From: Amoebophrya sp. A120
Taxonomy: Eukaryota; Protista; Dinoflagellata
Reading direction: 5' to 3'
DNA length: 64,000 bases
Assembly (NCBI GenBank): GCA_905178155.1
Contig: CAJINV010000003.1
Span: 11,040,339-11,104,338, forward strand
The number at the start of each line of letters is the position of its first letter. Positions within the stretch are counted from its first letter, which is position 1. The notes under the pieces are model-generated. The model saw only the letters and a list, made by a program, of their open reading frames with translations. It was not told the origin of the DNA and ran no database searches. A program made the translations under genes and the position numbers. Positions 9,977-50,089 of this stretch are shown piece after piece.

Positions 9977-12900
9977 ATGTCTTTCTTTCTGCAGCTTCTT
10001 CAAGCTTTACTCTTCGTAGTCGATCGGGCCGCTGGTGCTGGTGCAACATCACCACTGGTCAAGGTGAAACCCTGGAAATTTCTTGGTCCGTGGCCTGTGG
10101 GGAAGAACGAGTTGGATGTATGGATGTGTCAGGTTTGAAATCGTCAAAGTTGAAATGGTTTGCCATGCATAAAACGCATACCAGTTAGACCTACAGTTTG
10201 TAGTCGGTGCGTGACAAATTTTCCCGGCCCCGGAGGCGAGTCTGTCATGCGGTTTAGGGCAAAAGAGCTGCCTTCTGTCATGCTAGTCAGTAGTCCATTG
10301 GACTACTGACTAACTTGTGACCAACTTGTGACCCTTACCAGGACTATAATCTGCCTCCCTTGCGTCCTCTGCAATAGAGTCACTTTTTGCATCGCATTTT
10401 ATGCATTACAAGTCATTTCAACTTTGTCGATTTCAACTCTGACGCATCCATAGGATGCGGATCCTACATACACGGCAGCTCGCGGCGGCGTCTTCGATCT
10501 GTACCGGAGGGCCTTTCTGGTTGGGACTGAAAAGGGACACGAAAAAGAAGCGGAGCACCACGGCGTCACTCCAGATTCACACTCAGATGGAGATGGAGCC
10601 GATGCCGAAGATTTTCCGAATTTGTTCTCGGAATTACCTTCCGGCGGTCACTTGACTGAGCAGTTTTCAGCTGCCGACGGTCTGCGGTCGAGCGAAGCTT
10701 CCAAATCAACCACGAGGACCCTCACGAAGCAGGGAAGACTAAGAAAGCTGTTTGACAGCGAAGCTATCGCAGCTTCGCAGTCTACGGGAGGTGCAGCGAA
10801 AAATTTCAACGATGTTTGGGCTCGGGTCACGCCGCGTAACGTGCAATGGAGCCAGCTGGTGCAACAGCTGTCCTCCATGGAGGTCCTGGAATGGCAAGGC
10901 TGGGCGATTGCCAAGTTCGGCCCACTGGCCGAGAACACCACATACACGGTCGGTTGCGAGGGGGTGCACACCTTCTACATCGACGGCTTTGAGCAAATTT
11001 TTCCCGGTGATATGTTTCGCACGCGCCGAATTTCCAGTGCAGTCAGCTTTGCTTCTGAAAACAAGCAGGACGGCCAGCAGCATCAGCATCACGTGCTCTA
11101 TGTACCACTCAAAATCAGGGGGAACGCGGGCGAGTTTCGGTGCCGGGTCGAAAGAGTAGTTTCAACGGAGATGAACAAGGTGGAGTCTTTTGCCACGGTA
11201 GAGGTTAAAAAAGCTTTATTGCCAGAACTCCTCCATCACGCCGAAAGAAACACGAAGACACAAGCGCTCCTCGACGGTGCGGGTGCGACTTCGGAGGACA
11301 AGGAAACAGCGAGAGCCGCCGAGGGTTCTTTTCCTACGACCACCTTGATGGGTGAGCACCTGTCTCTCGCTATCACGAATCATCTGAGCGCGGAGTGGTT
11401 GCAGTTCCGCTTTCAGCCTTGCGAAAACCGAAACTCATGCAAGCCGGACGTGTTCGAAGTCCTACCACTTGAAGGAGCGGGCGGGGTTACATCAACCACC
11501 GGTGGTCAATATTCGTTTTCTGACTTAGTGGCCCCCGGACAGGCAACGGCACTTCCAGTCCGATTTCGCTTGATTGGCGAAGGGCGCAAGAAGTACGACC
11601 TCCAGAGTCCCCCCCGCGCTTGTGACTCAGTGGGCCTACAGCTGGACGTTTTCATGCGAGTCCTCGCCCAGCCGGACGCCGGCGATGATAGGCAAGATGG
11701 ATTGAAGAAGAACGGGACTGAGGATGATTGGAATTACCTCAAGACTTTACGCTTCACGCTGTCATGTCGGACGGCGCGGCAGTCATTTGTCTACACATTT
11801 CTTGACCACGACGGCACGGTCAACCGTGGCGCTGCTATCATGCCGCGCACTCATCAAGATGAACTACTACACGAAGCAACTTCTAATCAAAAAGAGGCAC
11901 CATCGGGCCAAGGGCGAGGAGACGACGGCCGCCTAGAAGAAGAAAAACCCCGATATCCAGTTCTGCTTTCGCTTCACGGGACCGGGGTGGATCCGCGCAA
12001 CCACGCAGACAGCTACAAGTACAAGCCGAAATCGAAAGAGGTGCAGAAGGCCGCAGGTGTATCTGCACCTGTGAAGAAAGTCTACAATGCTGATGAAAGC
12101 AAGATCCCCTTTTTCTACGGTGTGGACGGGGCCTGGGTAGTTTGTCCGACGCGCGCGGGCGCGCACAACTGGGAGTATACTGGGTTGCTTTCTGCCGTTC
12201 GTGCTCTGACGGCACTAAAAGCCATCGTCGACGGGAAACCCGAACTACACCGATTTGCGCGATTGGACCTCGACCGCGTCGTCTATTCTGGCCACAGCAT
12301 GGGCGGCCACGGCGCTTTGGTTCTGGCAACCAGGGTTCCGGAACCCATGGTGGGGCTCGCGCCCTTGGGGGCCTGGATCAAAAAGGAGGAATACGGTGAC
12401 AGCAACCGGTTCTTTCTGCTGGACCTGCAGAACGAGTTCGCGCCCCCAGAGCTGAAGGCAGTTCTGGAAACGAGCATGCTGGAAAACAGTGTGGAACCGC
12501 TTTTAGACAACGTTAGATCCAGTATCGCTACAGCTCATTTAGGCGACGATCGCGAGATGCACAAGCTGGACGTCGAGCAGGAGACAGAAACTACAACGAA
12601 GAAGGTAATTTCCAATAGGGCCACAAGGAGAGTTGAAAAAGACTCAATCCCCGCCGTCTCAAGGGTCAAGCTACGAGTCGGTGCAAAAGACGGCGCCACG
12701 CCTCCGTGGTACTCCAGGCGCTTGGCTAGAAGTCTGGTGGTTCCCGAAAGCGGAGTACCTGGATCTTTTGGAGGCGGGTTGACGACTCATCCCCGAGTTG
12801 GGCGGAGCAGGGGGCCGTCGATAGACTACGAAGAAGTGCCCGACAAGGAGCATTGGTGGTGGGACACCAATCGGCCGAACGATGGCGGCGTGCTAAACGA

Positions 12901-15900
12901 TCCCCGTATGCGTCAGTGGTACAAGCAAATTTTCCAGGTGGCAGCTGCGACGCCGACGATTGCAGATGCTTTCGTAACGTTGACCGAATCGATGAAATCG
13001 AATATCATGATCCCCGCCGAGAACAATGCTTCATCGTGTGTTGCAGGCAAAGGTGGACGAGACAGCCACATCACGGGGGACGGAGATGAAAAGTGCCTCG
13101 TAGATGCTGGCAACAGAAGCTCTGCGGCAGAGAAGGTGCTCCTTTCACTGAAACCCCTTACGCTGACAGCCACGAACTGCGCGAGCACTGTCGGGGGCTC
13201 GATTCAATTACTGGAACAGAAAGCACCCTTTCGCACCTCCAAAATTTTTGTGTCTGAGCGGCAGATCGTGCTGGCCACTACGGAAGGGAACGACCAGGAG
13301 GACGCGCTGGCTGGAACAGGCAGCGGAGTGCAAGGCGGCAACATGATCCGAGTAATTTTCAGACTTACAATTCAGCAAGTCGACAACGTTTCAGCTTTTG
13401 CCGTCGCCTTTCCAGGTCATTTTAACCACGAGAAACAATCAGACCGTCAAAAAAAGCTGGTCGCTTCGAGCATTGAGGTCTGTTTTGCAGAGCAAGGGTT
13501 AGAGTCAGAGACTGTCACCCCCTCCGTGGCTTGTCTACGCACCACAAGCACCGCCGACTCTGTTCCGGGCGCAGGCCATTTGAGGTTGCACGTTTGCCGG
13601 GTGGTGAAACTGAAAACGCAAGGTGATAGCAGGTCCTCCTCGGCCGGTGATACTTGGGAAATTTGTGATCCCGATCGACTACGGCAAGCGCGATGGCAGC
13701 AAGGCCCGTTACGTAACGTTTTTGCACGCCCGTTTGTTACGGTTGCGGCGGAACCTTTTTTGCGCCAGTCCGTCTACCTGGCTGGACTGCACTATGCTGC
13801 GGCGGACACTCGCTCGCCTGTGGTTCTGGACAGCATGCACAGCACAATTGAGACAGCGCTCGATGTTGGGGGGCATCCGCATCAAAACATCGTGCTCGTC
13901 GGAGGTCCCAACGTAAATCAAGCTGCGGCAGCCTTGTGGAGCCGCCATCGGCACCTCAAGGGTTTGCTCTCGTTCACGTTTGACGAGCGACACAGATTCT
14001 TGGAAACTTATCCGGCTGAAAAAAACTATCACTATCACAAAAAGCCACTTTTTGGCAAAAATTGATTTTTTTTTGATTTTTTTTGCGGCGCATTGGGGCT
14101 CGATCCTTGTGCCTGGTATATTGTTATTGTTGTTGCGATTAATGAGTGATATAGTTAGCTAGCTAGTGGTCGCTTGTGATGATTGTCATAGCTAACAGGA
14201 GAGCCGAATGGAAGGCCGGGCCGGGCCCTCGCTCCGAAGGCGAGCTCCCGAACCCTTGGTGGTGCCCCGGCCTTGGCGGGTCGGTCCCTTCCGGCCCGGG
14301 GCGGGAGGCGGCCAAAAGGTGCGCGGCGATCGCCACTCTCCCACCGTGTTTGAAAAATACTATCACGCCACTTTCTGGACCTGATTCCCAGCTTTCAGAC
14401 CTGGGCTGATTTGATGCTCCGGCGGTGGCGGGTGAGCTGCCTTCCGTTCCGAGGCTAGAGGCGGCCAAAAAGTGAGGCTCGATCGCCAGTCTCAGCTCGT
14501 GTTTGAAAAACACTATCACTCCACTTTTTGGATCTGGCTGCCGACAGCCAGTCCTCCCCGGATTTTTTTGGTTTTCAACACTGCGCGCGCAAATTTTTTC
14601 AAGAAATTCAAAAACCCGGAAATTCGATCATTTTGGCTGTGATAGTGTTTTTTCTGGCGGTGGTCCTATGTGGGCCGTGCCGCCGTGTTTGAAAAACACT
14701 ATCACACTTTTTTCCGGCACTCAAAAAATACCAACTTCACACCTTTTTTCACTTTTTCTATATCAAATCGCTCAAAAGTGTAGTGTGATAGTGTTTTTAA
14801 GCGCGAGCTAATGCTGCGAAAACACCGAAAATCAGCTCTTTTTAAAAATGCAAATTACGATGCTACGGCCCGGGTCAAAAAGGGACCCAAAATCGCCGTA
14901 GCGCCGTGGCTGAAAAACACTATCACACACAAAAAAGCGCCATTTTTGACCTCCCCGGAGAAGAAAAATCAATGTGATTTCAAAGTGTGAGCACCAAAAA
15001 AATTAGTGCTTGCGCCATCACCAATTTCTGCCGGAGGTTGTGGCCTTTGGCCTAGCCCCCGGGGGCTCCGGATGTCAGACCTGGCCTTCGAGCCCCCAGA
15101 TCCATCTGGGAGCAGGTCTGAGAAACGAGCCATAGAAAAGTCGCTCTTTATCCACCAAACCCACCAATTCCAGACTCGTCGTTAACGAGCATGGTGGAGA
15201 CACGCTTCCGCGCCCTCATGGCGCTGGCCGACTGGGCCGCAACGAGTTTGCTCTCGTTCACGTTTGACGAGCGACGCAGATTCTTGGAAAGTAGGCACGC
15301 ATCTACAAAAGTTTTGCAGCGAAGTAGCGTAATCGTGGTCAACATGCCACCTACGCAAGAATGGATACATACTATGCAATCTTCACAGTTCTTTTTCGTC
15401 AAGACGAAGAAACAAAGCAACTGCGCGAATCTGTGACTGTCAAGCTAAGTGAAGCCAAGATCATACCAGGCTTTTACGGGCACATCCGTGAAAGATATTC
15501 AGTGGCTTTCTTCTCCTGGCGCGGTTTTGCCCGTGCTTGCATTTGCAGTTTCGATTTGTACGAATTTTTACGCAAGGCAATGCTGATACTTTTGTAAAGG
15601 ATAGTAGCAGGACCGAAATCAGATTTCAGGAGAAATACAGCTTTCCGGCAAGCCGGAGCATCGGGCTTCTCTTATGGTTCCCGTATCCAATTGGCGACCC
15701 AGATGGTAGAGGAACCGATGCATTTCATCGACTTAGCGAGGACTCCACAATCCCCGTTGACGCGGAGGAGGAGATGGAGAGCGAGCGCAAAGTCTTGCTG
15801 ATATGTGGCACAGACGCCGAAGGACTGCGCGCGGCAACGCGGCTTGGGCAGCCAACAATTCCGCCAATGATGCGCGCGCCCTTCACGAACCAAGTGCCAG

Positions 15901-16025
15901 ACTATATCGTAGTGGACGCTCATGAGCTACGAGCGAAAGGCGCCGGCGGTATTTTGCTGGCTGGATTCTGGAACCGCACGAACGAAGCAAACTTCGTTCG
16001 CACAGATTTCATGCATGAACACTGA
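9977..16025 (+). CDS. Secreted alpha/beta-hydrolase, peptidase S9/esterase-like; exons about 9977-10117, 10457-14007 and 15590-16025
   Basis: Signal-like N-terminus MSFFLQLLQALLFVV; WKFLGPWPVGKNELD|ADP; PVLLSLHGTG; nucleophile elbow YSGHSMGGHGAL; HWWW; C-terminal GGILLAGFW. Removing the IR introns joins the pieces in frame. Confidence 0.8.
10118..10453. mobile_element. IR intron (introner), 336 bp
   Basis: About 40-bp TIR GTATGGATGTGTCAGGTTTGAAATCGTCAAAGTTGAAATG / CATTTCAACTTTGTCGATTTCAACTCTGACGCATCCATAG; TSD GAT; restores NELD-ADP. Confidence 0.9.
13962..15290 (+). repeat. 45-bp direct repeat of exon sequence (13962-14006 and 15246-15290)
   Basis: GTTTGCTCTCGTTCACGTTTGACGAGCGAC(A/G)CAGATTCTTGGAAA, 1 mismatch. 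Confidence 0.9.
14008..15589. mobile_element. Large composite intron containing a DNA-transposon remnant with subterminal AAAAACACTATCAC repeats
   Basis: Termini TTATCC...TGATAC; about 7 copies of AAAAA(C/T)ACTATCAC in both orientations at 14020-14930; removal joins FLET to FVKDSSR in frame. Confidence 0.6.
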
Positions 16026-17197
16026 TTCTCATTTTCTTTTCTTTATGCTTTCAGTGTACACGTTGAACCGCTCACATAGCCTGCGTCACATTCACTATCA
16101 CTATCATTACTTCTCCCTCAAAATAAAAAGATGCAACGGCACCCCACAACAAGAATAGTGCTCTTGATGAAAAAAATAGAGTCGTTGTTGATGAAATGAA
16201 AATATGACGATTTGAATTTGCAAGCAGGCTGATCGATAGCTAATGTCTGCGCGAACTGCTTACCGTGTAGAATTCTAGCGCTGTGCCGAAGTCGAGTAGT
16301 TAAATTGCCTAGCATGGTACTCTAATACTCCAAATAAAGGAACTAGCTTTTATCCGTGTGGCCGCCATTTTTGTAGACAAATGTCGTAGAGCTTTTCTGC
16401 AGCAAGGAGGACAGTAGACTCTGTAAAGCAAAAGCATCATCCAGGAGGAAGGTATGGCGCGGCTTGGCTGCTGCTGCTGGTGTAGTGCTATGGAAACGAA
16501 TGCAATGAAGGCACCCCATGTCCATAACCATATGCAGTGATAACGATGACGATAGCGTCGATATTGAAGTCAAACATAATGATGAGCCCCGACTGCATTC
16601 GCGCCATTCCTTGGCACTCACGTCTATCCTCGTCCTCGGTCATGCTCTAAATCCTGAGATTGGTTCATGTCGGTGACACGCAAAATGAAATGTTTCTGAG
16701 AAGATCTTTCTTCAGTCTATTAGTTCGTAAGAAGGAATACGAAGCAGCTGCGCCATCCCTCTGCCACAAGATGAAGATCGCTGTCGCAAATAACGATCTC
16801 TGAGTGCAATTTTAGGATGGAGTGGATGAATGAGAATGAGTCGAATATTTATGTGTATGCAAAAATGGTCTGGGTGGTTAGAAAGCCAGAAGGTACGGGT
16901 TGTACACATGAGATTCCCGCCGACTTTCCAGATTTTTATCTTCAGAGTGTTCCTGCAAACGCACAGTGTGCACCAAAAAGTCATACGTCTTTGAATATTG
17001 AGCGTCAGCATGCCATAAAAAGATTCGTATTTTTAAGGAATTCGAAACCATCATACCAACATGTTGTACCGGCGCTTTTGTTTGTTGCGCGGCTTCTGCC
17101 AAGTAAGTGAAAAAAACTAGCCGCAAACCGAAGCTTCTTTGCTACTCGCCTCCACGACTACCTGCAAAAGGGCGTTGTAAGTACTTCATCTGTTTTG

Positions 17198-19954
17198 ATG
17201 AGCGCAGGAGCTTCTAGCTTCCCTGCCGCGAAGGGTAGCCTGACGATCGGGTCCTTCTTGGAGCAGAGCCGCAGCCATGATTGGTCTACATCCACGTCGC
17301 CCTCACCAACAGGCGCCATTTCGTACCCATTGGCCTTCCTCGCGGGTGCGGGCTTCATGGCGGACGCCTATGACCTGTTTGTCATCGACCTGGTTATCGC
17401 CATCATCCAGAAAACCGGGGAGGACAGCAGTACCTCGAGTCAGGCCCCTGACAAGGAGAGTAAGGACATGCAGGCTAAGGGAGCCATTTCCTCGGCGTGC
17501 CTGTTCGCCGCCATCGTTGGCCAGCTGGGCTTCGGCTTCCTCGCCGACTGGTTCGGGCGCAAGATCCTGTTCGTTCTCACGTGCGTGCTGATCATGGTTG
17601 GGTGCGTCGGCCAGGCCAGCGCGGGCGCTTTCAACAGCCAGAGCGCATTGCTGCTGCAGATTCTGCTCTTCCGCATCCTGCTCGGAATCGGCATCGGTGG
17701 CGAGTTATCCTGTGCAAAAGTATCGCACTCGTATAAATGCAAGTCTTGCATTACAAATCTTGCTCTTAAGGTAAAACTGCATTACAAATTTTATTTCTCA
17801 TGCTGAGGAAATTTGTAATGCGTTGTTTATACGAGTGCGATACTTTTGCAATGCATACGAGTACCCGCTGGCGGCCACCGTCACCAGCGAGAAGGCCACG
17901 AAAACGGAGCGCAAGCGCACGCTGGCCGTCGTGTTTTCCATGCAAGGCTGGGGCCAGCTCCTGTCGGTCTTGGTAGTGTATGGTCTGCTGCAGGCCCAGG
18001 GCATGTCACTGTCGACCGCGTGGCGACTGTCGATCGCGGTTGGCTGTCTCCCCACGCTCATCGTGGTTTACTTCCGGGTTAAGATGACGGAAACTGAGCC
18101 GTTTCGGAGAAGCAGAAAGGAGGATGAGCAGCTTGAGGCCTTGATGTTGTTACGAGTGCAAAGAAGACATGTAGAGGTCGAGATGGGCGGGAGGAATATT
18201 TTTTGGAAGAGTGGGCTCCAGATCATGTCACCTTCCTCAGATCATCCTTAAGATCTTCGTTGCTGCTACCTTTTGTAGCATCGCTCTGTTACTCAGACCG
18301 ACGCAAGACAGGATCTTGCTACTTCACCTCCAAAATGTTGTAAGTACCTAGTGCATCATACTTGTGCAGGTGCACTTCCCATGATTACAAGTGTCTTGGC
18401 GGATGCATCAACTTGATGCCCTTGTCCATCATGTCCTTGTCCCTCATGTGCATTAGAGCACAAAAGAACCGCAACCGTTTGCAGTAGCTGAGGGGCTCTG
18501 CCCCCCATGCAAAGATGAACGCAGATCATCTTCGCACTTCTTACACGTACTTATACAGTATTCTAATTCTCCTGGGTCGTTTTTTTTTGCAGCTCAGCAG
18601 CGCAGTTCGAAACATTTCCCCCTCCTGCTCCCTCCTCGGTTTCTTTTCCTTTCCATACAGCACACACAAGTCAGCGTCGCCAACATCCGGAGAACACGAC
18701 GAGCAAGACGATTTACCAGACACTTTCACTTACGACCCCCCCGTGACAGGCACAGGCTCCGGAGGTGGTCCTCCTGCCGGAGCACTGACGTCAACGACCA
18801 GTGCCGGTGGGACAATACGGGGGCAAGAAGAAGGCGGCAAGGCACTCGCTGCTCTGTCCTCTCGTCACCAGTCCGCGTCGAATAAACGCCCTTCGTTTGG
18901 GAGGCAGTTGGCGAATCAGTGGAAAATCGCTCGCACCGCGGGACTATCAAATGTAAAAATGTCTGGGTCTGGAAGAATGCAGCAAGATTTGTCATGCATA
19001 TTTCAATTTCTCATGACCCATGATGCGTGTAATGCATGCCCTAGCATCACAAGTTTTTTGAGGGATTCTTGATGCCCATTCCGCATGACAAATGCCCTCT
19101 CCGCGTAGCAAAGATTAGACTCTGTTTGCTGCTCATGCAACGCAAATTTTTTAGACATCGAAACGCAGCATCACAAGTTGCATTCTTCCAGACCCAGACA
19201 CTTTTACATTTGATAGGGCCTCCTGCCGGTGCTGGTGGGAACCAGCGTCTCGTGGTTGCTGCTGGACGTAACGTTCTACGGCACGAATCTGTTCAAGACC
19301 GACATTGGGCAGCAGATTTTCCCCGACGACGAAGATGCCAGCGTACGGCACGCCCTGCAGCTGATGACGCTTCGGGCTTCCATCCTGGTGTTCGCCGGTC
19401 TGCCGGGCTACCTGGTCACGATCTTTTACGTCGACCACATTCCGCTCCAGAAGTTGCAGTTTTACGGGTTTGTCACCCTCGCTGTTCTCTTTCTGTGCGG
19501 AAGTCTTGCGCGGATCGGGGGCCAGGAGATACTCACCTTCGTTTTCATCAGCGCCACCGTCTTCTTTTCCAACTTCGGCCCCAACGCCACCACCTTCATC
19601 CTGCCCGCCCTGGTGTACCCAACGCCGGTGAAGGCCACCTGCCACGGCTTCTCCGCGGCCATGGGGAAGGCGGGGGCGGCCCTCGGGACGTACTTGTTTC
19701 CGACCATTGTCACGCACTTCGGGCTCGCCACGGTGCTACAGTGTTGCGCTGCCGTCGCTCTCGCCGGCGCGATCGTAACCCAGATATTCATCCCCGAGGA
19801 GGATGAAATTTCGAACGAGGAAATGCTTGTGTCGTCAGCCCCCGCTTCGGCTCTCCTAGAGCCGGAAAGTTTCATGGATCAACGAGCAGAAGTGGGTGGA
19901 GGTGGCAGAAATAAAGGCAAGACGCACGAGCACGAAAGAAGTAATCGAGCTTGA
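17198..19954 (+). CDS. MFS inorganic phosphate transporter, Pho84/PHT1 family; about 4 exons
   Basis: AGAGFMADAYDLF, GQLGFGFLADWFGRK, FRILLGIGIGGE|YPLAATVTSE, VFSMQGWG, SWLLLDVTFYG, FFSNFGPNATTFILPA..YPT..KATCHGFSAAMGKAGA. The middle intron (about 18146-18660) is not precisely placed. Confidence 0.92.
17705..17858. mobile_element. IR intron, family A, 154 bp
   Basis: TTATCCTGTGCAAAAGTATCGCACTCGTATAAA / TTTATACGAGTGCGATACTTTTGCAATGCATAC; TSD GAG; splits the conserved GGEYPL motif. Confidence 0.92.
18944..19216. mobile_element. IR intron, family B, 273 bp
   Basis: About 38-bp near-perfect TIR CTATCAAATGTAAAAATGTCTGGGTCTGGAAGAATGCA / TGCATTCTTCCAGACCCAGACACTTTTACATTTGATAG; flanks GGA/GGC. Confidence 0.9.
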
Positions 19955-21585
19955 CTACAGGAGAAGCAGTCCTGATGATGATGTAATCAAAACTGAAAGA
20001 TTGATCGTTTCTGATGTCCCCGAGGTTTGGCTGATTCTATTTTCCACTTTTTCCCCTCGTCGCCCGGTTAAATCTAAATGATGGTGGAACTACCACTGGG
20101 CCACAGGAAAAAAGAGACATACTATACTTATTTTGTTTTTGGTTATTTAGTTTGAGGGACATTACGACGAAACAGAAGACAGAAAGCTTTTTGCTGGCAA
20201 AAGTAGATGACGCAACAAGAGCTCCCGAATCATACATATGGGGAGCACCTTGGGAAAACTTACAACAACTCGACCTGAAAGTAATGCGCGCCGCATGTTC
20301 ATCAGCCTCAGCTTCGAGCTCGTCACTGGAAAAAGGTAGAATACGATCGATCAGTTCCTATAATCGGTTGCCACGAATTGCACTCTTTTGATTACGAAAA
20401 TCAGGAGGACTGCAGTAGATCTCCTTCGCCGTCCTGTTACTTTTCACTTTAGCTCAGTTTTCATGCCTCATAGTATCACTCGGTCATCGTTTTTTTTCAG
20501 CCACCATCCATACCATTTCACTTCGGAAGAAAAAAGGTTGCGCTCTTCGAACTTTTCCTGGTCATCGTGATCACATCTTCCGGTTTTTTGTCGTGATAGG
20601 GGTTACTTGATGCGTTTCGTGGTTAGTCTAGGTAGTAGTTTACCTAGAAGTAGAAGTACAAGCATAAGCAAGCACCAGGGTGTCGTCTTTTTGAGTTTAT
20701 CTGCTCATCTTTTCTTTTCTTTTGTTTGCCTTCAAATTCAGCTTCGTTTTTGAACCATTAAAACCTCGGCACCGAAATCGATGCGTAGGGTCGTGTATCT
20801 GCCAGTTGATGTAGCTTTGAGAATACAGAATGCCTCATGTGAAAAACCTCTCGTCCTCATCCAATGGCGCCACTATCACTTTGGGAGAGTTTTCTACCCT
20901 TGAAGATATACATATTAAGCAGAAGCAAAACCTGCATCAGCATCTCTGGACAAGAAATGAGAATGAGAAACCAGCAAATATCGCCAGAGTTCTAGTCGAC
21001 AGAGATGGAACCACGTCAAGTGACGCAATCAGCTCGTCGTCCTGGTGCGGGGGCTTCATCGATTATATAGACCTGCTGTGCGCCGCTACCAGGCAGTTCA
21101 TCTCAGTCGCAGCATGTAGAGCAACTTGTCATTGCTGGCATCGTTGTGGTCCATGTTTGGGGCCTCACGGCACCGAAAGTCGTTTCTTGCGAGACATCAG
21201 TATCACACACCGCCCATGCGCGCCAGGAGGCGTCGTGAATCCGAAGCGGTTCCTCGTCTTCGATGGGGAGGACGAGGAGCGAAGACACGCGCGACGAAGC
21301 CTGCCGAAACGTCCAGGAGCCGCAATCTGCTCTGCTCCTGCTTCACCTTACGGAGATTACAGAGGAAGGCAATCGCAAAAATCGGCCTCAGTTTACGCAC
21401 TTTGTTCCTCCTCAGGAGTGCCAGAGCATCAACCGCCGTCTATGCAGCTTATTTATATTTGCCCCGATCCGCACTTCGCGAGCCGAAGGGTTGGTGGTAC
21501 GGTAACGGTAACAGTATGTAGCAGGAGATCCCGAATAAAAAAGCGGGAGGTATTAACATCCTTCAGTGCTCCGCACGACCACGAG

Positions 21586-24500
21586 ATGACATCGACGGCA
21601 TGGGCGGAAAGCTGCGACAACGCGAGTTCGATTTTGGCGAGTCGCCGGGGAGGTAGACAGAATATGCAAATAACAACACCTTCTGCGGGCCCTTGCTCGG
21701 ACGCCAGTGGTGTGTCCTTGTCCCCAAGTTTGTTTGCTTCTTCTTCACGAGCACGACGTGGACAAGAACTGAGCTGTCTTTATTACCTTTCCGCGGCCAC
21801 TGTGTCGCTGGTGCTGATGCTCCTACTTATCGCTTGTTCCGACCACACGTTCGAGGGACGTACTAGGGGATCGCAAGCAACTGACTTTTTACCCGCAGTA
21901 GAGGCAACGGCTCTGCGAGGCACCCTGCACGCTCCCAGGAAAGAGCCCGAAACGCCGAGCGTCCCGAGCTGGTTCGACGTCAGCATGCAAAAGAAATTTC
22001 GGAAGCGCTTCGCAGATCCCCAAAAGCGGCGGAACACGGCACTGACGGGCAAGAATGTAGTCTGCGTTGAGGGACCCCACCGCTGGGCCAATGCGCAGGT
22101 ACTGGAGAGCATCTACATCAACGTGGTGCGACCTCTGGGGCCCGACACCGATGTCGTTGTGGTCGCGCCCGATGTCAACTATGCCCAAGAGCAGGACGGG
22201 CGGCACTTCAATACTGGCCGAAATCGTGTGGGGAAGGGGCGCACGTACCTCCAAGCCGAAGCTTTGGCGGAGTTTTACTTGCAAAAAAATCACTCCGCCT
22301 TTGAAGAAAACAGGAACTACCTCAATGAGGAACAGAAGCAAGATCAGGAAACCGCGGAAGCGAGCGAGCGGACCTCAGGAGCAGAGAAATCTCCTCGAGA
22401 AACAGCAGGAGCGGATCCGGGGGACAACCGCGACCAGGTATTGGCAAACACGATCGTGTATGAATTGCAAAAATGTCTGGGTCTGGAAGAATGCAACTTG
22501 TCATGCTGCATTTGGATTCCAGAAAAATCTGTATTGCATGAGTACCACAAGGAATGTAATTTTTGCTACGCGGAGAGGGCATTTGTCATGCGGAATAGGC
22601 ATCAAGAAGCTCTGAAAAAATCTGTGATGCTAGGGCGTGCAGCATCACAGACATCAGGGCCCATGCAAAACGTGCATGACAAGTGGTAGAATGTTCCAGA
22701 CCCAGACATTTTTACAGTTGATATCGTGCAAAGCGCCAACTTGCGTAGCGAGATCGAGCGCACGCACGAGTATGTGCGGGAGACGAAAGTTGGCACGCTA
22801 GAACAGCTATGCAATGCAAAAGTATCGTACTAGTATAAATTGCATCACAAATTTTTCAAGAAGAAAAATGGTGGAATTTGTAATGCTGATTTACCTAAAA
22901 AGGAATATTTGTCATGCATGATAGCAATTACTACGAGTACGATACTTTTGCACAGCATAACAACCGCACTTACACGCACTGAAGCACAGTCCCTGTCTGT
23001 ACAAGCGCATCTTCGGCAAGCACCTGATATCCCACAGGAAAGCACACCCATCGCCATCCAGGAGAGAACAACAGCAAGAATGTATGAATATTCTATATGA
23101 TGTGTGCTGCTCGTCTCGTCCTAGATTTTTGATACAACTAGAAATTGAAATGAAGCAACGCGGCGGGAATGAAGGATGTTGCTAGATCTGGAAATGCAGC
23201 AATGCGGAAACCGCAACAAAGGAGCAAATTTTCTGTTATGCAGCAGAATGCCCTTCCCCTTTCTTTGACTTTGTAGTGTCAGTGTCTGTGTTGCTCCTGG
23301 CGTTCCAGTAATTAGCGAGGTCGTACCAAACAAAATAAGCAGAGGCGGACATTAAACCAACTCGCGCACACAATTTTAGAAGTTTTCTTCTGGTTAGATG
23401 GGCGTGCTTTTTTTGGGCATACCTGAAGGCATTGGACATGCAGCAGGATGAGACGCGTCTAGAGCTGGTCAATGACTTCTCTCTATCCTGAGTGAAAATG
23501 TCACCACCCCAGGGTTGTCCTCGTCATGCCGATCTGCATTCAATAGCAATGCGGTGGAAACTACTCACATATAACATTTGCATATGCGCATCTGCAACAT
23601 GAGGCGAATTCCTAGGTGGCAGAGGAAATGCTGTCAATTAGCAGGATTAAGTAGATGGGTTCGTCGTGAAACTCCGGCTGCCCTCCTTTCTCTGAACCTA
23701 CTAGCCCTGCTCATCTACCGCGTGACCCCAAAAACTTCACGATTTGTTTTCTTGACTTTGGGGCGCGGCTGGGGCGACGCCTTTGCACGGGATCTTCTCT
23801 GGAGTGGTTTCGCGACAGCAACAGCGAGCAGCCCGGCTACCGGTTTGGCATGCACCTGATGGCGAGTAAGTGGAAGTGCCTGCTCGCGATGCGGCTGAAC
23901 AAGCTAAAGCTGAGCAGTTACGACTGGTTCGCCTACACCCGCAATGACGTGTTCTGGGCCTATCCTCACCCCCCACCCTATTTGCTGAACCACGAGAAGT
24001 GGATGCAGCCCGGCACCGGGTGGGGCGACGCGGGGGGAAAGTTCGACGTGCGACCGGTGGACATCTGGATTCCCGCATGCTTCGACTACGCTGGCATCAA
24101 TGACCGGCTCTACACCATCCGCCTGCTATCCTGTGCAAAACTATCGTACTCGTAGTAATTGCTATCATGACAAATATCCCTTTTTAGGCAAATCAGCATT
24201 TACAAATTCCATTTTTCTTCTTGAAAAAATTTGTGATGCAATTTATACTAGTACGCTACTTTTGCACAGCATACCTGCGCCCCGGCGGCGATTTTCAGTG
24301 GACCACCGCGGCGGAGAAGAAAAAGAAGATCCGGGAGCAAATCCGTAAGGCCAAGAAGGTGTTCTTCCGCTTCACGCGCGCTGTGTACGCGCGGCCGGGA
24401 GGGATGCCCATGGTCCGCGCCGACGCGCTGCCACCGCCGAATGCGAGCGACCCCACCGACGTCAGCTGGCGCTTTCTCAAAGGGTTTGAGGGCGGCATAG

Positions 24501-30500: not shown

Positions 30501-30906
30501 TGCCATAGCCATACTTACGAGTGAAGGTAAGGGGGAGTAGTAAGTTGCGCACTCTCATACGAAGCAGCAGCATGCCCGGGATCCTGGCCAGAAGGACTGT
30601 CTCTCCTGTTGGTTACGGGGCCCGAAGTACTCGCAAAACACGGGGTGGATGTGCTGGAAAGCCAAGGGCATGAAGGTGAAAGACCCAAGCCGCTGCTGCG
30701 GGCGGCTGGAAACGCCGTTCTTGCACGCCAACCTTTGGACCCACTACCCGCGCACAGATTGTTTGCTGGCGGAGCATTTGTGCTCCGATTTTCTCTTTGG
30801 CATGTGGCGCCGGAGCCTGAAAACGGGATTACCCAACGTGCAAGAGGCGCAGCGGCCCGACCGCCGGGAGTACGCGGATACGCCACTTAGCAATCTGATC
30901 TACTGA
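21586..30906 (+). CDS. Very large multi-exon type II membrane protein, glycosyltransferase-like; at least 10 IR introns; start uncertain (ORF open from 20830) and structure beyond about 29850 unresolved
   Basis: TM segment YYLSAATVSLVLMLLLIAC; motif YDWFAYTRNDVFWAYPHPPP...IWIPACFDYAGINDRLY resembles uncharacterised algal GT-like proteins. Removing each IR element plus 3 nt keeps the frame open from 21586 to about 29850, except for one unresolved short intron near 26243-26310. Confidence 0.65.
22458..22724. mobile_element. IR intron, family B, inverted relative to the 18944 copy, 267 bp
   Basis: GTATGAATTGCAAAAATGTCTGGGTCTGGAA / TTCCAGACCCAGACATTTTTACAGTTGATAT; TSD CGT; interior is the reverse complement of the 18944 interior. 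Confidence 0.9.
22807..22960. mobile_element. IR intron, family A, inverted relative to the 24126 copy, 154 bp
   Basis: CTATGCAATGCAAAAGTATCGTAC / GTACGATACTTTTGCACAGCATAA; flanks CAG/CAA. Confidence 0.9.
23027..23422. mobile_element. IR intron, 396 bp
   Basis: ATATCCCACAGGAAAGCACACCCATC / GATGGGCGTGCTTTTTTTGGGCATAC; TSD CTG; frame restored (GKHL-KALD). Confidence 0.85.
23483..23795. mobile_element. Degenerate IR intron, 313 bp
   Basis: CTATCCTGAGTGAAAATGTCACC / GGCGACGCCTTTGCACGGGATCT; TSD TCT; frame restored (NDFS-LEWF). Confidence 0.7.
24126..24274. mobile_element. IR intron, family A, 149 bp
   Basis: CTATCCTGTGCAAAACTATCGTAC / GTACGCTACTTTTGCACAGCATAC; TSD CTG; joins ORFs 23850 and 24221 (YTIRL-RPGG). 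Confidence 0.92.
26906..27138. mobile_element. IR intron, 233 bp
   Basis: CTATCCACCGCAAAT / ATTTGTGGTGGATAG; TSD GCG. Confidence 0.88.
27202..27401. mobile_element. Degenerate IR intron, about 200 bp
   Basis: CTATGC..TATCGTACATCGTA / TACGACCACGATA..GAGGATAC; flanks ATG/CTG; an alternative in-frame end at 27302 is possible. Confidence 0.6.
27953..28196. mobile_element. IR intron, family A-like, 244 bp
   Basis: CTATCCTCGATGCAAAAAT / ATAGTTTTGGAATGCATAG; TSD CAC; joins LTRT-GARTK. Confidence 0.8.
28459..28686. mobile_element. IR intron with family A termini, 228 bp
   Basis: CTATCCTGTGCAAAAGTATTGTAT / ATAGAATACTTTTGCACTGCATAC; TSD CTG. Confidence 0.9.
29350..29565. mobile_element. IR intron, 216 bp
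   Basis: CTATCGCAAGAAAAAAGTGTTACAGTTGCAC / GTGTAACTGTAACACTTTTTTCTCGTGATAT; TSD CCG; joins LHP-LYPKYYAQMKE. Confidence 0.9.
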
Positions 30907-37015: not shown

Positions 37016-40000
37016 ATGGCGGCAAGTAGCAGCGCAGACGCGTTTTCTGCACCAGATCCGCCTGCGGCCGCCACGGCGCCGACCTTTGCGGAAAAAGAAG
37101 CGGACTTTGAGAGTATGGTCTCCGATCTGCGGGGAGTCTTCATGGACTGGCTCCGGCGCTCAGAGAGGGAAATGGCAGATGCACGAGCGGAGCTAGCCGC
37201 CGCCAAAAAGGCCTTCGAGGACGAAAAAGCAAAGGTGTGGAAAGAGTTCATGAAAGAGAAGCAGGCAGAGTAATATTGACCTTTTTTTTTGTGACTTTTC
37301 CTTGGTCGTCTTCGTCATCATTGATCTGAGAATATGACGGGCTGCATAGCACTAGTACTAGAAGCATCTGGACGGATGATCCGGATCCGCTGCGTCACCG
37401 GCATGTATGTGTTTCACATGCGCCGCGTAATGTAGGATGACCACCATGTTTCTTCTTTGTTTGTTCCGGATCGATCCTGCTTCGTTGCCTATATCTATAC
37501 CTTCTACGGTGCTATGTCGATACTAGGATATGCTGTATCCAAGAGCTACACCTCTCGTCACAACATATGTCGTGTGTACTTCTAGGTACGAGAAGATACA
37601 AGGCGAGCGGCGAAAGAACGAGGCAGAGATAGCAGCTGCGATCAAGCAGGTGGCGGTAGAACGCGAGGACGCGCGGTCCAAGATTGCCGAGGAACGGGCG
37701 AAATTTGAAGAAGAGAAAGAGAAGAGCAAACGACGACTCGCCTTGGACCGTGAACGGCTCAGACAAGAAGTTGAAACCTTCGAAGAGGAGAAAGAAAGGA
37801 TAAAAGACCAGGTTTGATGCAATGGTGCAGCTATTCATCTTTTTGTCACGACTTTGTTCCGATGGACAAAAGAGAAACAATTCATTGACTCTAAGTAGAA
37901 GTAAGGCTTGTAGTCACATCTTCAGTGATGTTGCTCAGCACCACGAACTACATATAATCCTTGCCGCGAGTGCATCGTTACCTTCTAAGGGATGGAGCTT
38001 GCGCAAAAAGTTGTATGTATGAGTCCCAAAAGAATAAGAAACATCAAAAATTCTGGAGGCTCTCGCGTCTGAAGAAATAGTAGACCTCAACGTGGGCGGT
38101 GTTACGTTCGAAACTTCAAAGGCGACTCTCTGTAAGCAGCCCGGATCCTACCTGGAGGCGCTGCTATCGGGAAGAGAGCACGTCGGCCGCGACAGAAATG
38201 GCAGAATTTTCATAGACCGCGACTCCGAATCGTAAAAAATTTTTTGCTCTTTCGTGTTCTTTCTTTTTGGTTTGGCTCTGTCACTAAGAAGTCAAAAAAT
38301 GATATTATATTGGTCATTTTCAGCCACAGCGTGGCTCATCATGGAAATATTGCTTCGTCATCTTCTTTGTCCTGTCTACATACATTATTGCTTTAGATAA
38401 TATGTGCTGCTTTATACTGGGTAATTGAGAGTCAAGAATTACTACTCATTCACGAAAAAGAGCATGTAAAAACGAACAAGGTTCCGCACAATTTTGAATT
38501 ACCTCCGTGGTTCAAGTGACGCTGCCGTGCCGCTGCCCAGCTCTGCTCAAGAATCCGAATCTCTTGTGAAGGAATCAAATTACTACGGGGTCAAATTTTT
38601 CCCATACCCGCTCGTCTTCGCAGCCGGAGGGCACAACGGCTATGAACATTTGTCCGCTATGGAGGTTCTGGACGTCGGGAATCAGTGCTGGAGGCCTTGC
38701 AGATCAATGCGCACAGAAAGAACCTACTTCGCGGTAATGAAACTAGTACAGTGGACCACGACCATCTTTAATAGGACAACATGAACATCATTGATGCAGT
38801 TTTCTTTTTTCCTTCACTCAACCACAATTGCACAATTGGCGACTTGGACTTGCGCGGGATTCCACCTCCAGCCAGGATTTGTATCTACAACTATAAGAAG
38901 TGTGACTTCACTTTGAAACTAGTTCTAGTTCTGCGATCCTGGTTTTCATCGTCGCCTTGAGCTTAACTCGCTTCTAACACGGCTGCAGGCATCGACGCTT
39001 TCGGCAAAGCTGTACCTCATGGGTGGCCAGAACTTGGGTATGACCCTTAAAAATATGTCTGGGTCGGAAACGCAACGAAACAGAAAGTGTGGCTGGTCCT
39101 GTTGCTGCCTCGTATTGAAGCTGCATCGATATCATTGAAAAGTTACTGATCTTTGTGTCTTCAGCCTTTTGCCATCAGCATCACGAGCTGTTCTTCTTCT
39201 CAAACAAGTAGACGGACCCAGACGTATTTGAAAAAATGCATAGTGGAATACAAGGCACTAAACGAGATGGAAGTTTACGACTGTCTCCGTGACGCCTGGA
39301 TGGCGGGTCCGCCTCTGAATTTTCCAAGAAGAAATGTTACCAAAGTGAATCAGAAGATAGGACGTAGTTACTCACCGGTTGATGAAGATGTGCATGTGCT
39401 CGAGAGCCCTTTCGAATTAACCGTAAGTGTACGATGTGTAAATAAGGAAGTAAAACGACCATTGCTATTCACAACTCCGCAGTGGTACTCTCGTCGACCT
39501 TCCCATCGCAGGGAAACTTGAACTTCTACGCAGGAAGACCTCAAAAAAAGAATTGAACACACACGAGTCTTCACAGTGAAGATGTTCACGCTCCATAAGT
39601 GGCTACTCGTAGATTCGTTCCTTGAGCGCGGCCTGAAAGGATTCACATCTTCGTGGAACAGCAAACGTTCTTCTCCCGGTGCCTCTCCATAAGCGCCTGC
39701 TCGGAACAAGTGGACGGAAAAGTGTACATTATGGGGGGTTTTGACGGATCGCAAATTCTCTCTCACGTGGAGTCTTACGACCCACGCATGAAGTCTTGGA
39801 TGGAAAACGCGGGAATGACCACACCACGCTCCTCGGCTATGTCCTGTGTGCATGGCGGCAAGATCTTCGTGCTCGGAGGTAGCCTACCTTGGTTCTTGTA
39901 GTTCCGCTTGTTGCACATCAATATCTGACAATTGTACTGATTCCACGGCGGGCCACCGCTTAGATTTCAATAGTCAGAGTGGTCTCCGCCAGAAGTAGAA

Positions 40001-41258
40001 ATGACAGACTTTGATTTTACGTGGTGTCTTCTACTTCTCCACTTCATGTTGAACTCCACTATTTGTAACTTATTGTCGCTCTTTAACTTTGATCAAAAAC
40101 TCCGATCTCCATCATCGACCGCCGGATAAATATCTGGAGAAATGGAACTCCCACAGGTACAAGCGGCAAGAGGCTCAAAACAGTCGAGTTTTTCGAGCCG
40201 AAAATGAATCGATGGAGCCCATTTGACGTGGACATGATTGACGTTCGAAGTGCTGGGCAGGCGCTGACCTGCCTGTCACAAATATACGCACTTGGCGGCA
40301 CAGACAACCAACAAACAATACACTACTCAGTACTTCTTTTCTCCTACTGTAGGTCGATAATTCAAGAATCTGATTGCATGGTTGCGCGAGGCTGTCTTTT
40401 ACAACTTCTGAGCCGGTTGGGTAGTTGCCTTGCGATTTAGCACGCAGCCCATAATTCAATTTAGTTTCTTTCGTGATCGCATGACACCGAACAAGACATT
40501 TGCTTTTATCCTCATCAGGTGGAATCATTGGACCAGGAGACCGTGACGTGGATGTATAACAAGAGCATGCAAGTCAGTCGGATGGATTTTGCAGCTACGG
40601 TGATTTTACGCGGAGCAAAAGTAAGCTACCCCCAGGTGTAATCTTCAATTTAAGCATGATCGCAAAAGTGCAGCACTGGGGGTGATGCTTACATACACGA
40701 ACACGGCAGTGCACCGCGAGCGCTTGAGCCTGAAGTTTGTTTCAATTATGAAAATGATGTGAGCACCTGCGGGATGGTTTTTCACGGGATACATTTCCGA
40801 TTCCATCATGGTCGGCGGCGGGCAAAGTGGCGACATTCTCGCGAGCACAGAGTATCTTCTTATCATTTTGTTTACCATCAATGATCTTCCGCTTTTATCC
40901 TTGTCTCTTCTTCAGAGAGTATCTTCCGTTTTTATCTTTGTCTCTTCTTCATCTTCCTTGGTGTCGCTTTTGATAAGCGGAAAAAACAAGGGCAGAATTA
41001 AAGCTGGTCCTAGTTGTTATATTGAAGCTGTCTGCTTTGCAAAGTAGGCGCCAGGCTACCTTCTGTGCTACGCAGGCCAAGGCCAACGACATCAACCTTG
41101 AAAAATCAATCTGTTGCTGTACTAAATTTTGAATAAAGGATCTGAAGAACATCTTTTCTGAAAACAGGTTCTACCGGCCCGAGCTCGACACGTGGCAAGT
41201 CGGTCCGAGTATGCTCACGCCGCGTTACGGGCATCAGTACCTAACTGTGTCTCTGTAG
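37016..41258 (+). CDS. K13: Kelch13 orthologue (coiled coil, BTB/POZ, 6-blade kelch propeller). 11 exons: 37016-37269, 37586-37811, 38059-38231, 38481-38733, 38989-39037, 39247-39336, 39696-39878, 40157-40329, 40519-40605, 40796-40851, 41168-41258
   Basis: Colinear with Plasmodium K13 as recalled: ADFESMVSDLR, DLNVGG..FETS..LLSGR.HV.RD..GRIFIDRDSE.FR.ILNYLR, YGVKFFPYPLVF..GG, YKAL.E.EVYD.LRD.W, PRSSAM, WQVGPSML.PRYGH. 7 GT-AG introns and 3 IR introns. Confidence 0.95.
39038..39243. mobile_element. IR intron, family B-like, in K13, 206 bp
   Basis: GTATG..AATATGTCTGGGTC / GACCCAGACGTATT..GCATAG; TSD TGG. Confidence 0.85.
39337..39692. mobile_element. Degenerate IR intron in K13
   Basis: TTACC...CCATAA termini; flanks ATG/GCG; the nearest GT-AG pair breaks the frame; removal gives PRRN-ACSEQVDGKVY, aligning with PRRNNCGVTSNGRIY. 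Confidence 0.7.
40606..40792. mobile_element. IR intron in K13, 187 bp
   Basis: TTACGCGGAGCAAAA / TTTTTCACGGGATAC; TSD ATT; restores FAATVI-SDSIMVGG. Confidence 0.85.
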
Positions 41259-42761: not shown

Positions 42762-44306
42762 ATGTCGGTCCAGAGCATGCTGTCAGCTTCCACGACGCAG
42801 TATGCGTTCCACAGTACTCCTGCCCCGCTAACCGCAGGAATCCCTGATCCTGCAACGGTGCAGACACAAAAAGAAGCATATTTGAACATGCTCGAGCAGC
42901 AAATGAAACAGGGAGTCACTGCATTGGACGCCCAGCTCAAGCACCAAAAGGAGTATCTCGCAGCGCAGGCAGAACAGCAGAAGAAACAGTATTTTTTCTT
43001 TTGCTGTTGTATTTTGGGATACGATAGGCTCTTGTATAGATACTGAAAACCGCGCTTGAGCTGGAGGCAAGGAAAAAAAGAGTGGAAAAAGATATAAGAA
43101 GTTGTGACACCAAATCACTGTGACTGTGAGGACGCAACGGCAAGAGAGCGGCGCCTCAACGGAAGTCGATATTAAGGGTTTATGTCTAACGGACCAAAAT
43201 GTGTTTTGTATGGAGGTTGAGTAAAAAGTCTTCCATCCCTGCTCTCGTTTTTGGTAACTTATGTTTGATGTCTATGTCCTCTTGCTAATCTCTCCAGTCA
43301 TCCTTTTTCCCAACACCTGCTAGATTCGCGATGCAAGTGGATCTGGAAACCAACCAGCAGCAGATGGCACTTCAACAACAGTACCAGGAACAGAAGATGA
43401 CGCTGCAAAATCAAGCGGGAACACAAAAATCGCAGCTCGAGCAACAGAGCATGCAACTCATACTCGACTACTTACGAAGCGCAAACAATGCCTGTGGTAG
43501 TCGTAGTTCCTTATGCCGAAAACGGCATGTTTGTATTTCTGATGTTAAGGAGGTATTTATGATATGAATGCTTCGGAAGAAAATATGCGACAAAGGAAAG
43601 CATGATATATCTACAATGAAGGAACAGTAACAGACGTAGTAGAAGTGGAGCAGCGATGAATAATTTTGCCATTGAAACATAAATCTGAATCTGGCAACTA
43701 CAAGTAGGACTGCGTTGCTGCAGCGAGCAAATGTCGTAACGACTTCCAAACAGAGAAGCACTTTCAGCAGTTTACATTTTCATTTTCTGCCGTACAGGTC
43801 ATTTGTAATTGCATAGTCCACTCAGAAGAAAGCCGAGGAGGAAATGCAGAAGCAGCAATACGACATGGAGAGACAGCAACAGGAGGTACCAGCTTAATAT
43901 TTCCAAAGCTCCTCACGCGCTTTACTTATCTATGTGCGGTGGTGATCATCTCACTGCTCCTGTAAATTTCTGCTTACCAGGCACAAGTGAATGCGGCAAG
44001 CCATAGAAAGAACAACAGGGACAGAAACAGGCCGTTAGTGAATATGATTTTCTAAAATTTAAGTACGCACCACATGATCTTGATCATCTTGTTTGACTGG
44101 AACTAGATACAACAGTCGCTTCATGATCATGGGATGTTCATGCTGTCCAACTCCAAAAACAGATGCAGATGCGGTTGCAGTCTGAAATGGCAAGGTTGCA
44201 AACGAGCTCTCAGTTCTCCTCTGGTATGCAGCCACCCAACATTCTCGCGACCTACAGTGGCACCGCTCCTACACTGCAACACCCTGCCGCATCAGTGTCG
44301 GGCTGA
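42762..44306 (+). CDS. Glutamine-rich coiled-coil protein of a type common in dinoflagellates; exons 42762-42988, 43324-43471, 43820-43885, 44163-44306
   Basis: GIPDPATVQTQKEAYLNMLEQQMKQG...QAEQQKKQF.MQVD..LEQQSMQLILDYTQKKAEEEM; two GT-AG introns and one IR-type intron give a continuous frame. Confidence 0.8.
43472..43816. mobile_element. Degenerate IR intron, 345 bp
   Basis: TTACGAAGCGCAAA / TTTGTAATTGCATAG; flanks TAC/TCC. Confidence 0.7.
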
Positions 44307-49950: not shown

Positions 49951-50089
49951 TTTCGCACTGCTTGTTGATGACGAGAAGTTTTCAGAGTTTTACCTGTTCT
50001 AATACAAGTTGCGCAATTCCTGTCGCCACCGATCTTTGAGAAACGAGAAACATAGAAACACACGAGGGGAGTAGATCTATCAATGCCGA

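Follow-up and report, generated by a model that had tools for sequence, protein, structure and literature searches.

TAT…ATA-ended elements in five genes of Amoebophrya sp. A120: a 5-bp target duplication and a probable single −1/+4 register of removal from transcripts

The stretch under consideration (hereafter the window: 64,000 nucleotides (nt) of Amoebophrya sp. A120, contig CAJINV010000003.1, positions 11,040,339 to 11,104,338, forward strand) includes five plus strand genes whose coding sequence is interrupted between 10118 and 43819 by 22 elements: two in an esterase/hydrolase gene, three in an MFS transporter gene, 13 in a gene labelled 'GT-like', three in a Kelch13-like gene (K13) and one in a gene for a Q-rich protein. 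The elements, as a rule, begin with TAT and end with ATA inside terminal inverted repeats (TIRs); they span 147–507 base pairs (bp) from TAT to ATA, except for a single element of 1595 bp. They directly abut a 5-bp target-site duplication (TSD), and 14 of them are missing from probable transcripts, at joints compatible with one register: the removed intron would comprise the element, one base before it and four bases after it (−1/+4). The first-pass annotation of this DNA had recognized at least 17 such insertions in the same genes, with a size range of 149–396 bp that proves too narrow. The present list combines elements found by RNA joint with elements found by motif and reading frame, and it is not an unbiased sample.

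Introns are given below according to the −1/+4 rule. 'TSD n/5' is the number of matching positions between the two flanking 5-mers, an 'X1 joint' is a junction in contigs of sequencing run X1, and 'cut' is the number of bases of the left 5-mer that could be kept at a junction.

9977..16025, plus strand: host gene 1, esterase/hydrolase (A120 protein P0059, 1369 amino acids (aa), PF00756)
10118..10456, plus strand: hydrolase intron; element 10119–10452, TSD 5/5; X1 joint 10113 to 10453
14008..15607, plus strand: hydrolase intron of 1600 nt; element 14009–15603, TSD 1/5, 1.2 kb of internal repeats
17198..19975, plus strand: host gene 2, MFS (Sugar_tr) transporter by Pfam
17705..17861, plus strand: transporter intron; element 17706–17857, TSD 5/5, 150-bp family; X1 joint
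18150..18661, plus strand: transporter intron, exactly pinned; degenerate TAC…ATA, TSD 0/5; X1 joint 18149 to 18662 with no junction ambiguity
18944..19219, plus strand: transporter intron; element 18945–19215, TSD 4/5, 270-bp family; X1 joint, cut at least 4
21664..30906, plus strand: host gene 3, the 'GT-like' gene (a label lacking confirmation) with 13 elements; start approximate
22458..22727, plus strand: 'GT-like' intron; TSD 5/5; 270-bp family, orientation opposite to 18945, 79% identical over full length; X1 joint
22807..22963, plus strand: 'GT-like' intron; TSD 4/5; 150-bp family, orientation opposite to 17706 and 24127; X1 joint, cut 4–5
23027..23425, plus strand: 'GT-like' intron; TSD 5/5; X1 joint
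23483..23798, plus strand: 'GT-like' intron; 3' end ATC for ATA; TSD 4/5; X1 joint
24126..24277, plus strand: 'GT-like' intron; TSD 5/5; from reading frame, joint absent from the 15 listed
26185..26493, plus strand: 'GT-like' intron; TSD 4/5; X1 joint, cut at most 4
26906..27141, plus strand: 'GT-like' intron; TSD 5/5; X1 joint, the only one also readable as GC-AG
27202..27404, plus strand: 'GT-like' intron; TSD 3/5; X1 joint, cut 2–4
27953..28199, plus strand: 'GT-like' intron; TSD 4/5; X1 joint, cut at most 4
28459..28689, plus strand: 'GT-like' intron; TSD 3/5; X1 joint, cut 1–4
29350..29568, plus strand: 'GT-like' intron; TSD 5/5; X1 joint
29799..30189, plus strand: 'GT-like' intron; TSD 3/5; from reading frame only, running beyond the stretch compared with X1
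30268..30563, plus strand: 'GT-like' intron; TSD 5/5; from reading frame only, outside the stretch compared with X1
37016..41258, plus strand: host gene 4, Kelch13-like BTB-Kelch; seven GT-AG introns and three element introns
39038..39246, plus strand: K13 intron; TSD 3/5; published protein permits cuts 1–4
39337..39695, plus strand: K13 intron; TAC…ATA, TSD 2/5; published protein permits cuts 2–4
40606..40795, plus strand: K13 intron; TAC…ATA, TSD 4/5; published protein permits cuts 0–5, register unpinned
42762..44306, plus strand: host gene 5, its Q-rich product belonging to a conserved family; end approximate
43472..43819, plus strand: Q-rich intron; TAC…ATA, TSD 2/5; conserved Tyr needs cut of at least 3

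Removal of each element together with 5 nt yields open frames of 602 aa (transporter), 1946 aa ('GT-like') and 544 aa (K13, the first 515 aa being identical to the published A120 protein), as the first-pass annotation had anticipated for the restored frames. Retention would introduce stops in all three frames for 21 of the 22 elements and a frameshift for the remaining one. For the transporter, Pfam corroborated the Sugar_tr/MFS assignment; the 'GT-like' label found no backing, with zero Pfam matches on four exon pieces. For the Q-rich protein 155 relatives were recovered at E ≤ 0.001, the first protein search having given none. K13 is 90% identical to its orthologue in strain A25 in the queried exon. 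The published A120 model of K13 (P0001) reads through the GT-AG intron 40852–41167; splicing of this intron gives a tail identical to the A25 orthologue at 44 of 45 positions, and the C-terminal end of the public model therefore seems to be in error.

The K13 exon 38482–38733 and the hydrolase exon 10457–14005 are 100% identical to NCBI proteins of Amoebophrya sp. A120, and the elements are the introner elements, or non-canonical introns, published for this strain (Farhat et al. 2021, PMC7789003). Thus the first-pass view of one structural class of MITE-like insertions (MITE, miniature inverted-repeat transposable element), in an organism whose unusual introns had already been reported, is borne out. 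According to Farhat et al. (PMC7789003), more than 60% of A120 introns are non-canonical, canonical and non-canonical introns coexist within single genes, the inverted-repeat motif opens with TAT, after which come seven bases that vary and a run of three or more A, and direct repeats of 3–5 nt border the introners (5 bp in the legend of Fig. S19). The intron border 'remains unknown' there, the position of the splice sites varying with respect to the hairpin; the authors argue against general mobilisation by a transposase and report none in A120. Gozashti et al. (2025, PMC12130899) assigned A120 introners to diverse transposon classes and filed family 38 as Ginger (5-bp TSD, TA/TA termini, TIRs, Copia/Gypsy-like homology); this is one of 50 A120 family rows (of 58), most others being 'unknown' with automated TSDs of 2–6. 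Already in print, therefore, are the elements with their TAT motif, an example of 5-bp repeats and one Ginger-like family.

The length of the duplication could be settled by repeat matching. The first-pass annotation had described a 3-bp TSD outside NTAT…ATAN ends, a description equal in total length to TAT…ATA with 5 bp. Among the 21 short window elements, the middle 3-mer is perfect in 14, the whole 5-mer in eight, and six more match at four of five positions. A larger sample was obtained from a second assembly, namely metagenome contigs in which the 270-bp-family pattern found 157 stretches when about a quarter of the collection was scanned; it comprises 155 loci and 413 kb (one contig-name prefix in the 80 rows listed). 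For the 270-bp family, whose ends were paired by TIR alone so that some failures are mispaired ends, a perfect abutting 5-mer occurs in 101 of 126 pairs, compared with two pairs at 3 bp and none at 6–9 bp. Across the 155 loci, the middle 3-mer is perfect in 106 pairs, and in 101 of these the two outer bases agree as well. A scan blind to family gave perfect abutting 5-mers for 222 of 317 end pairs, against 27, 7, 3, 0, 0 and 1 for repeats of 2, 3, 4, 6, 7 and 8 bp; when 18 symmetric inner pairs are set aside, the figure is 222 of 299, with 34 more at four of five. Eight other terminal triplets gave zero or one perfect repeat each, and TGT-ended pairs carried a 5-bp TSD in 0 of 212 cases. The duplication is thus 5 bp directly abutting TAT…ATA, and the former '3 bp plus N' represents its middle three bases.

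The 222 perfect elements fall into 17 interior clusters with differing end sequences, most with a run of A at positions 11–14; in the window, A occupies positions 11–13 in 15–18 of 21 left ends. Full-length pairs within window families are 79–90% identical, and 10 of 24 window elements match the second assembly. The elements are short, non-coding and multi-copy, with TIR and TSD, as is usual for MITEs. The end-motif scan proposed earlier, run strictly and with the 5-bp repeat (TAT..ATA, TIR at least 14/20, perfect duplication), returned nine matches in the window and none in each of 30 shuffles. No target-site preference for AG or G, nor any beyond the GC-rich background, was detected in the second assembly, and an Rfam search gave zero matches. 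Copies in the second assembly appear to be mostly exonic, with weak support: in a flank-frame test 24 of 34 same-strand calls were in register (13 opposite-strand and 27 no-call, of 74). An any-frame-open test, with 96 of 104 for +5 against 90–93 for other offsets, was uninformative. One element of that assembly (L068:3001–4031, 1031 bp, perfect TSD) has a second element nested inside.

Several repeats lie outside the five genes. Two TAT…ATA elements with TIR 18/20 occupy 51167–51406 (TSD 5/5, ends shared with 10119) and 54426–54785 (TSD 2/5); their removal with 5 nt joins long open frames, at 54426 on both strands. The first of these breaks a repetitive frame in the block 50900–52050. A doubtful element at 6379–6639 has TAT…ATA ends and a perfect 5-bp repeat with a weak TIR (10/20). 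A different repeat type occurs at 45807–46300, where an inverted repeat of 18–21 bp, its arms separated by some 460 nt and accompanied by short subrepeats, lacks TAT ends. GC-rich low-complexity or tandem-repeat blocks cover 3700–4860, 50000–52450 and 62900–64000. In the second assembly, loci L075–L078 include one gene, by eye presumably that of the largest RNA polymerase II subunit, with at least eight elements, one of them 972 bp long.

A 5-bp TSD combined with TAT…ATA ends points away from superfamilies with 3-bp TSDs and towards an integrase-type mobiliser. By their sequence features the elements resemble integrase-type (Ginger/GingerRoot-like) transposons, and a single transposon superfamily likely accounts for all of them. 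The single transposase proposed in the first-pass annotation is conjectural: end sequences differ among the 17 interior clusters, and published homology to an integrase-type enzyme is partial and concerns family 38. Mobilisation by several unrelated transposases, or by a family with 3-bp TSDs, concerns the origin only and would be compatible with either splicing route considered below. The diverse classes assigned by Gozashti et al. (PMC12130899) speak for several transposases, as does the lack of an autonomous element here; the abutting 5-bp TSD and TAT ends common to the 222 perfect elements of 17 interior clusters speak against them, and the 3-bp reading fails in the second assembly. This origin is accordingly regarded as unlikely.

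The fate of the elements in RNA could be followed in the contigs of X1, a presumed RNA run; these were compared with positions 9901–29900 of the window. Fifteen joints were listed there and three more lie beyond the listing. Fourteen skip an element; the fifteenth was rejected as a repeat artefact linking two related elements. None of the 14 could be a GT-AG intron and one could be GC-AG, in agreement with the earlier statement that most elements are not spliceable as GT-AG. Between the window and the exon pieces listed for X1 there are 0–3 letter differences, even decayed elements are missing, one contig covers just the transporter unit (16934–20226), and the share of window words in X1 (0.59) lies inside the 0.55–0.69 expected for exons, in comparison with 0.93–0.94 for runs X5 and X6. 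X1 is therefore likely RNA. Together with K13, where three element introns stand beside seven GT-AG introns, these joints favour the removal at RNA level alongside ordinary splicing that the first-pass annotation had proposed. The 1.6-kb sequence 14008–15607, by contrast with the 14 skipped elements, is retained in X1 contigs.

About 1.2 kb of this 1.6-kb intron consists of short repeats in mixed orientation, the upstream exon end (about 13960–14006) is nearly copied inside it at about 15245–15290, and X1 contig depth is higher from 15199, which may reflect duplication of a segment or the presence of another transcript. The raw-read RNA runs X8–X10 cover element ends without exons and are uninformative on these genes. 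X8 and X10 reads that do not match the exons of these genes join element ends (17836–17858, 18984–19001 and 22469–22507) to other sequence; 87 reads join a piece of the 270-bp family to a 150-bp-family end, a retained and possibly hybrid element in a related organism.

Two explanations would dispense with splicing. TA-ended eliminated DNA occurs in ciliates, and the elements could be excised from DNA in a similar manner, or X1 could be DNA of a strain with empty sites; the guessed RNA status of X1 leaves room for this. However, fully decayed elements are missing from X1 too, its exons are near-identical to the window, a contig is bounded to the transporter unit, and the word share fits exons. 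Moreover, a symmetric cut would produce the mirror junction in about half of the cases, and the mirror is excluded at four RNA and three protein-level junctions. This explanation is given almost no credence. Alternatively, the joints could be template switches of reverse transcriptase across hairpins at direct repeats, the genes being truly disrupted. A hairpin flanked by direct repeats is a classic template-switch substrate, the evidence consists of cDNA-derived contigs of one run, and the 1.6-kb element is retained in them. Against this, the joint at 18149 has neither a repeat nor a predicted terminal stem, the register is fixed and asymmetric, and the elements would break the frame (stops in 21 of 22) in genes such as K13, whose exon is nonetheless 90% identical to that of A25. 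Such an artefact seems very improbable.

The register was derived from elements whose two 5-mers differ, where the joint reveals which copy's bases stay. At least four bases of the left 5-mer are kept at three joints (18151, 18945, 22808) and at most four at five joints (18151, 26186, 27203, 27954, 28460). The intersection over the 14 X1 joints is exactly four, and all 14 admit exon|N-TAT…ATA-NNNN|exon. Under independent uniform cuts a common register would arise with P = 0.042 for the RNA joints alone and P = 0.004 when four junctions from published proteins (39039, 39338, 40607, 14009) are added; the latter are annotations probably made from related RNA data, thus independent junctions rather than independent data. 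At hydrolase position 14009 the junction peptide matches P0059 only for cuts 4–5. The cut 14008–15607 was predicted by the rule before comparison with the P0059 protein, which matched; once this segment is removed, an open frame of 1202 aa becomes one of 1322 aa. Conserved residues agree with the register as well: Asn at the 39338 junction in 41 of 41 scorable homologues and Tyr at the 43473 junction in 32 of 35 scorable homologues (of 150). Alternative GT-AG or GC-AG borders were considered and rejected; same-length shifts within 12 nt exist for four of 22 elements, and the testable border-adjacent case (18150) is unused.

Copies of the same family are skipped in both orientations (17706/22808 and 18945/22459), so the signals probably lie in the element ends. 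In the second assembly the largest family is split 15:13 relative to the inferred gene strand, and smaller families 6:2, 2:2, 4:0, 2:0, 1:1 and 2:0. At the 5' ends of 21 window elements, TA follows the first intron base in all 21, position +4 is a pyrimidine (Y; C in four, without a compensating change at the opposite end) and position +5 is G or C (S) in 21 of 21; at the 3' ends A−7 and T−6 occur in 21 of 21, giving the signature N-TAY-S…S-ATA-N4. Canonical donors of this genome have GTA in seven of eight cases. Which bases matter was assessed from 25 elements of the second assembly with one variant end (one nested, two strand-unsure); some share a locus, their splicing was unseen, and the strand caller was correct in 49 of 52 test windows. 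First-base variants of the terminal triplet are at the 3' end in nine of nine confidently oriented cases, so the intron U at +2 is never changed; third-base variants are at the 5' end in three and at the 3' end in two (first against third base, Fisher P = 0.027), and middle-base variants are split four and four. U+2 is thus a robust requirement, while A+3 and the candidate branch A−7 are not absolute; an earlier, smaller test of A−7 had given 8 of 11. Folding predictions give strong terminal pairing, with p ≥ 0.9 at the inner pairs, in 11 of 21 elements and none at 20 °C in eight of 21, including four with RNA joints (18151, 23484, 27203, 27954).

In the reading preferred here, to which slightly better than even chances are given, the elements are Ginger-like integrase MITEs skipped at one register, likely through a modified major spliceosome whose one remaining requirement is U at +2. 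Insertion duplicates 5 bp whatever their sequence and takes place in either orientation, as shown above. The mRNA, judging from the X1 contigs, would take bases 1–4 from the left duplicate and base 5 from the right one, and therefore a fresh insertion would be removed without trace. The signals would lie in the ends: the 5' N-U-A-Y-S may share the U+2/A+3 register with GTA donors, and the 3' cut could be placed by distance from the S-AU-A motif and not by AG. An end-to-end hairpin probably aids young copies, although among the old copies that are spliced several have no such prediction. With landing sites repaired in RNA, MITEs could fill exons. The spliceosome is favoured because the register places UA at the canonical donor position and because published end pairs start likewise: in Table S4 of Farhat et al. 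(PMC7789003) all nine top non-canonical A120 pairs begin N-T, and the eight A25 rows consulted, of nine, begin TT, although aligner bias may contribute. Short fixed distances between branch point and intron end are known from Yarrowia, Trichomonas and Giardia (PMC2483917); by our own count from that paper, the branch A and the 3' end are 6 or 8 nt apart in Yarrowia and Trichomonas.

Several observations weigh against this reading. No transposase was found in the 64-kb window or in the 413 kb of loci by an integrase motif scan (one irrelevant match) and by inspection of the open reading frames of three long elements by eye, and GingerRoot and IS3EU make TSDs of 6 bp, not 5 (PMC6839031, PMC10045372). 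At 18150–18661 (TSD 0/5) a same-length GT…AG one base upstream is unused, which a normal spliceosome should prefer. Insertion sites are unselected for G+1 or AG (first G in 21 of 60, last AG in 6 of 60, both in 1 of 60). In the second assembly, the candidate branch A−7 is altered in two of five third-base variants and A+3 in four cases, and the strand-unsure L003, starting GC, would be an exception to U+2. All RNA joints come from contigs of the single run X1 and cover plus strand genes only, and those contigs retain the 1.6-kb intron.

The same origin and register could be combined with another machinery: a spliceosome-independent endonuclease-ligase, or a second particle, could bind the TIR stem or the motif and cut at fixed offsets. 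This was weighted as a serious but less probable possibility because AG and G+1 are ignored altogether. The neglected GT-AG next to 18150, the lack of preference for G+1 and AG, and the terminal pairing strongly predicted in 11 of 21 elements are in line with it. In Euglena, fixed spacers flank an inverted motif, for which non-spliceosomal factors are the authors' preferred agents (PMC12501133); after excision, euglenid introns take the form of circles rather than lariats (review PMC11282704). On the other hand, UA at +2/+3 is the frame of a spliceosomal donor and U+2 is the spared base, and no terminal pairs are predicted for the precisely skipped 18151, 23484, 27203 and 27954. Furthermore, U1 was not detected in A25 and A120 (PMC7789003) and is present in the GT-AG strain from Karlodinium, thus apparently lost in just the first two strains, which counts for the retooled spliceosome and against a separate machinery. 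If it nevertheless existed, it might represent a second splicing code, in which the transposon end is a complete signal, the −1/+4 ruler overrides GT-AG and a non-spliceosomal machine is convergent with that of Euglena; this is entertained tentatively. Whatever the site and in either orientation, an insertion of the class with a 5-bp TSD would then disappear scarlessly from the mRNA.

If the −1/+4 register holds genome-wide, the annotation of many ambiguous junctions would be fixed; it would also explain how elements can enter an exon at any point and in both orientations with the protein unchanged, and it would supply exact substrates to tell whether a relaxed spliceosome or some novel splicing activity is at work. 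The uniform 5-bp TSD narrows the search for the mobiliser to integrase-type enzymes. Neither a fixed register nor an asymmetry at U+2 nor a bypassed GT-AG was found in the consulted text and tables of the open-access Amoebophrya literature, and the −1/+4 rule is probably new for this known system.

Among known systems, the nearest are the A120 introners of Farhat et al. (PMC7789003): the same genome, TAT followed by seven bases and an A run, a 3–5-nt repeat, removal other than by GT-AG and repeated families. In place of the variable border described there, one 5-bp TSD class, one −1/+4 register, use in both orientations and a spared U+2 are seen here. Family 38 of Gozashti et al. (PMC12130899) has the same 5-bp TSD, TA/TA termini and TIRs, and the present data suggest that its anatomy is the general one for A120 elements. 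GingerRoot and IS3EU transposons share TIRs and TA..TA termini with the window elements, which are not members: the 6-bp TSD of those transposons occurs in 0 of 317 pairs. For Ginger2 one paper gives a TSD of 4–5 bp and the other 6 bp (PMC6839031, PMC10045372); the TG..CA termini of Ginger2/TDD are absent here, the TSD being carried by TAT ends. The passages of these two papers drawn on do not describe GingerRoot, IS3EU or Ginger2 as introns. The GT/GC…AG ends of U2-type spliceosomal introns are not those of the elements. Nonconventional introns of Euglena (PMC12501133) share an inverted terminal motif, unequal fixed spacers, junctions blurred by repeats, coexistence with GT-AG introns and a suspected MITE origin; their signature is 5'-N3CDG…CH'GN5-6|R, with spacers of 3 and 5–6 and a purine at the exon start, whereas TAT/ATA with spacers of 1 and 4 is found here. 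Since the lineage is unrelated, the likeness appears convergent. Finally, introns of Fritillaria borealis, derived from MITEs with TIR and TSD and removed by an adapted spliceosome, form a precedent for the reading preferred here (review PMC11282704); they favour the end pairs AG-AC and AG-AT and have a target preference, whereas in A120 U+2 is the one constraint on the terminal bases.

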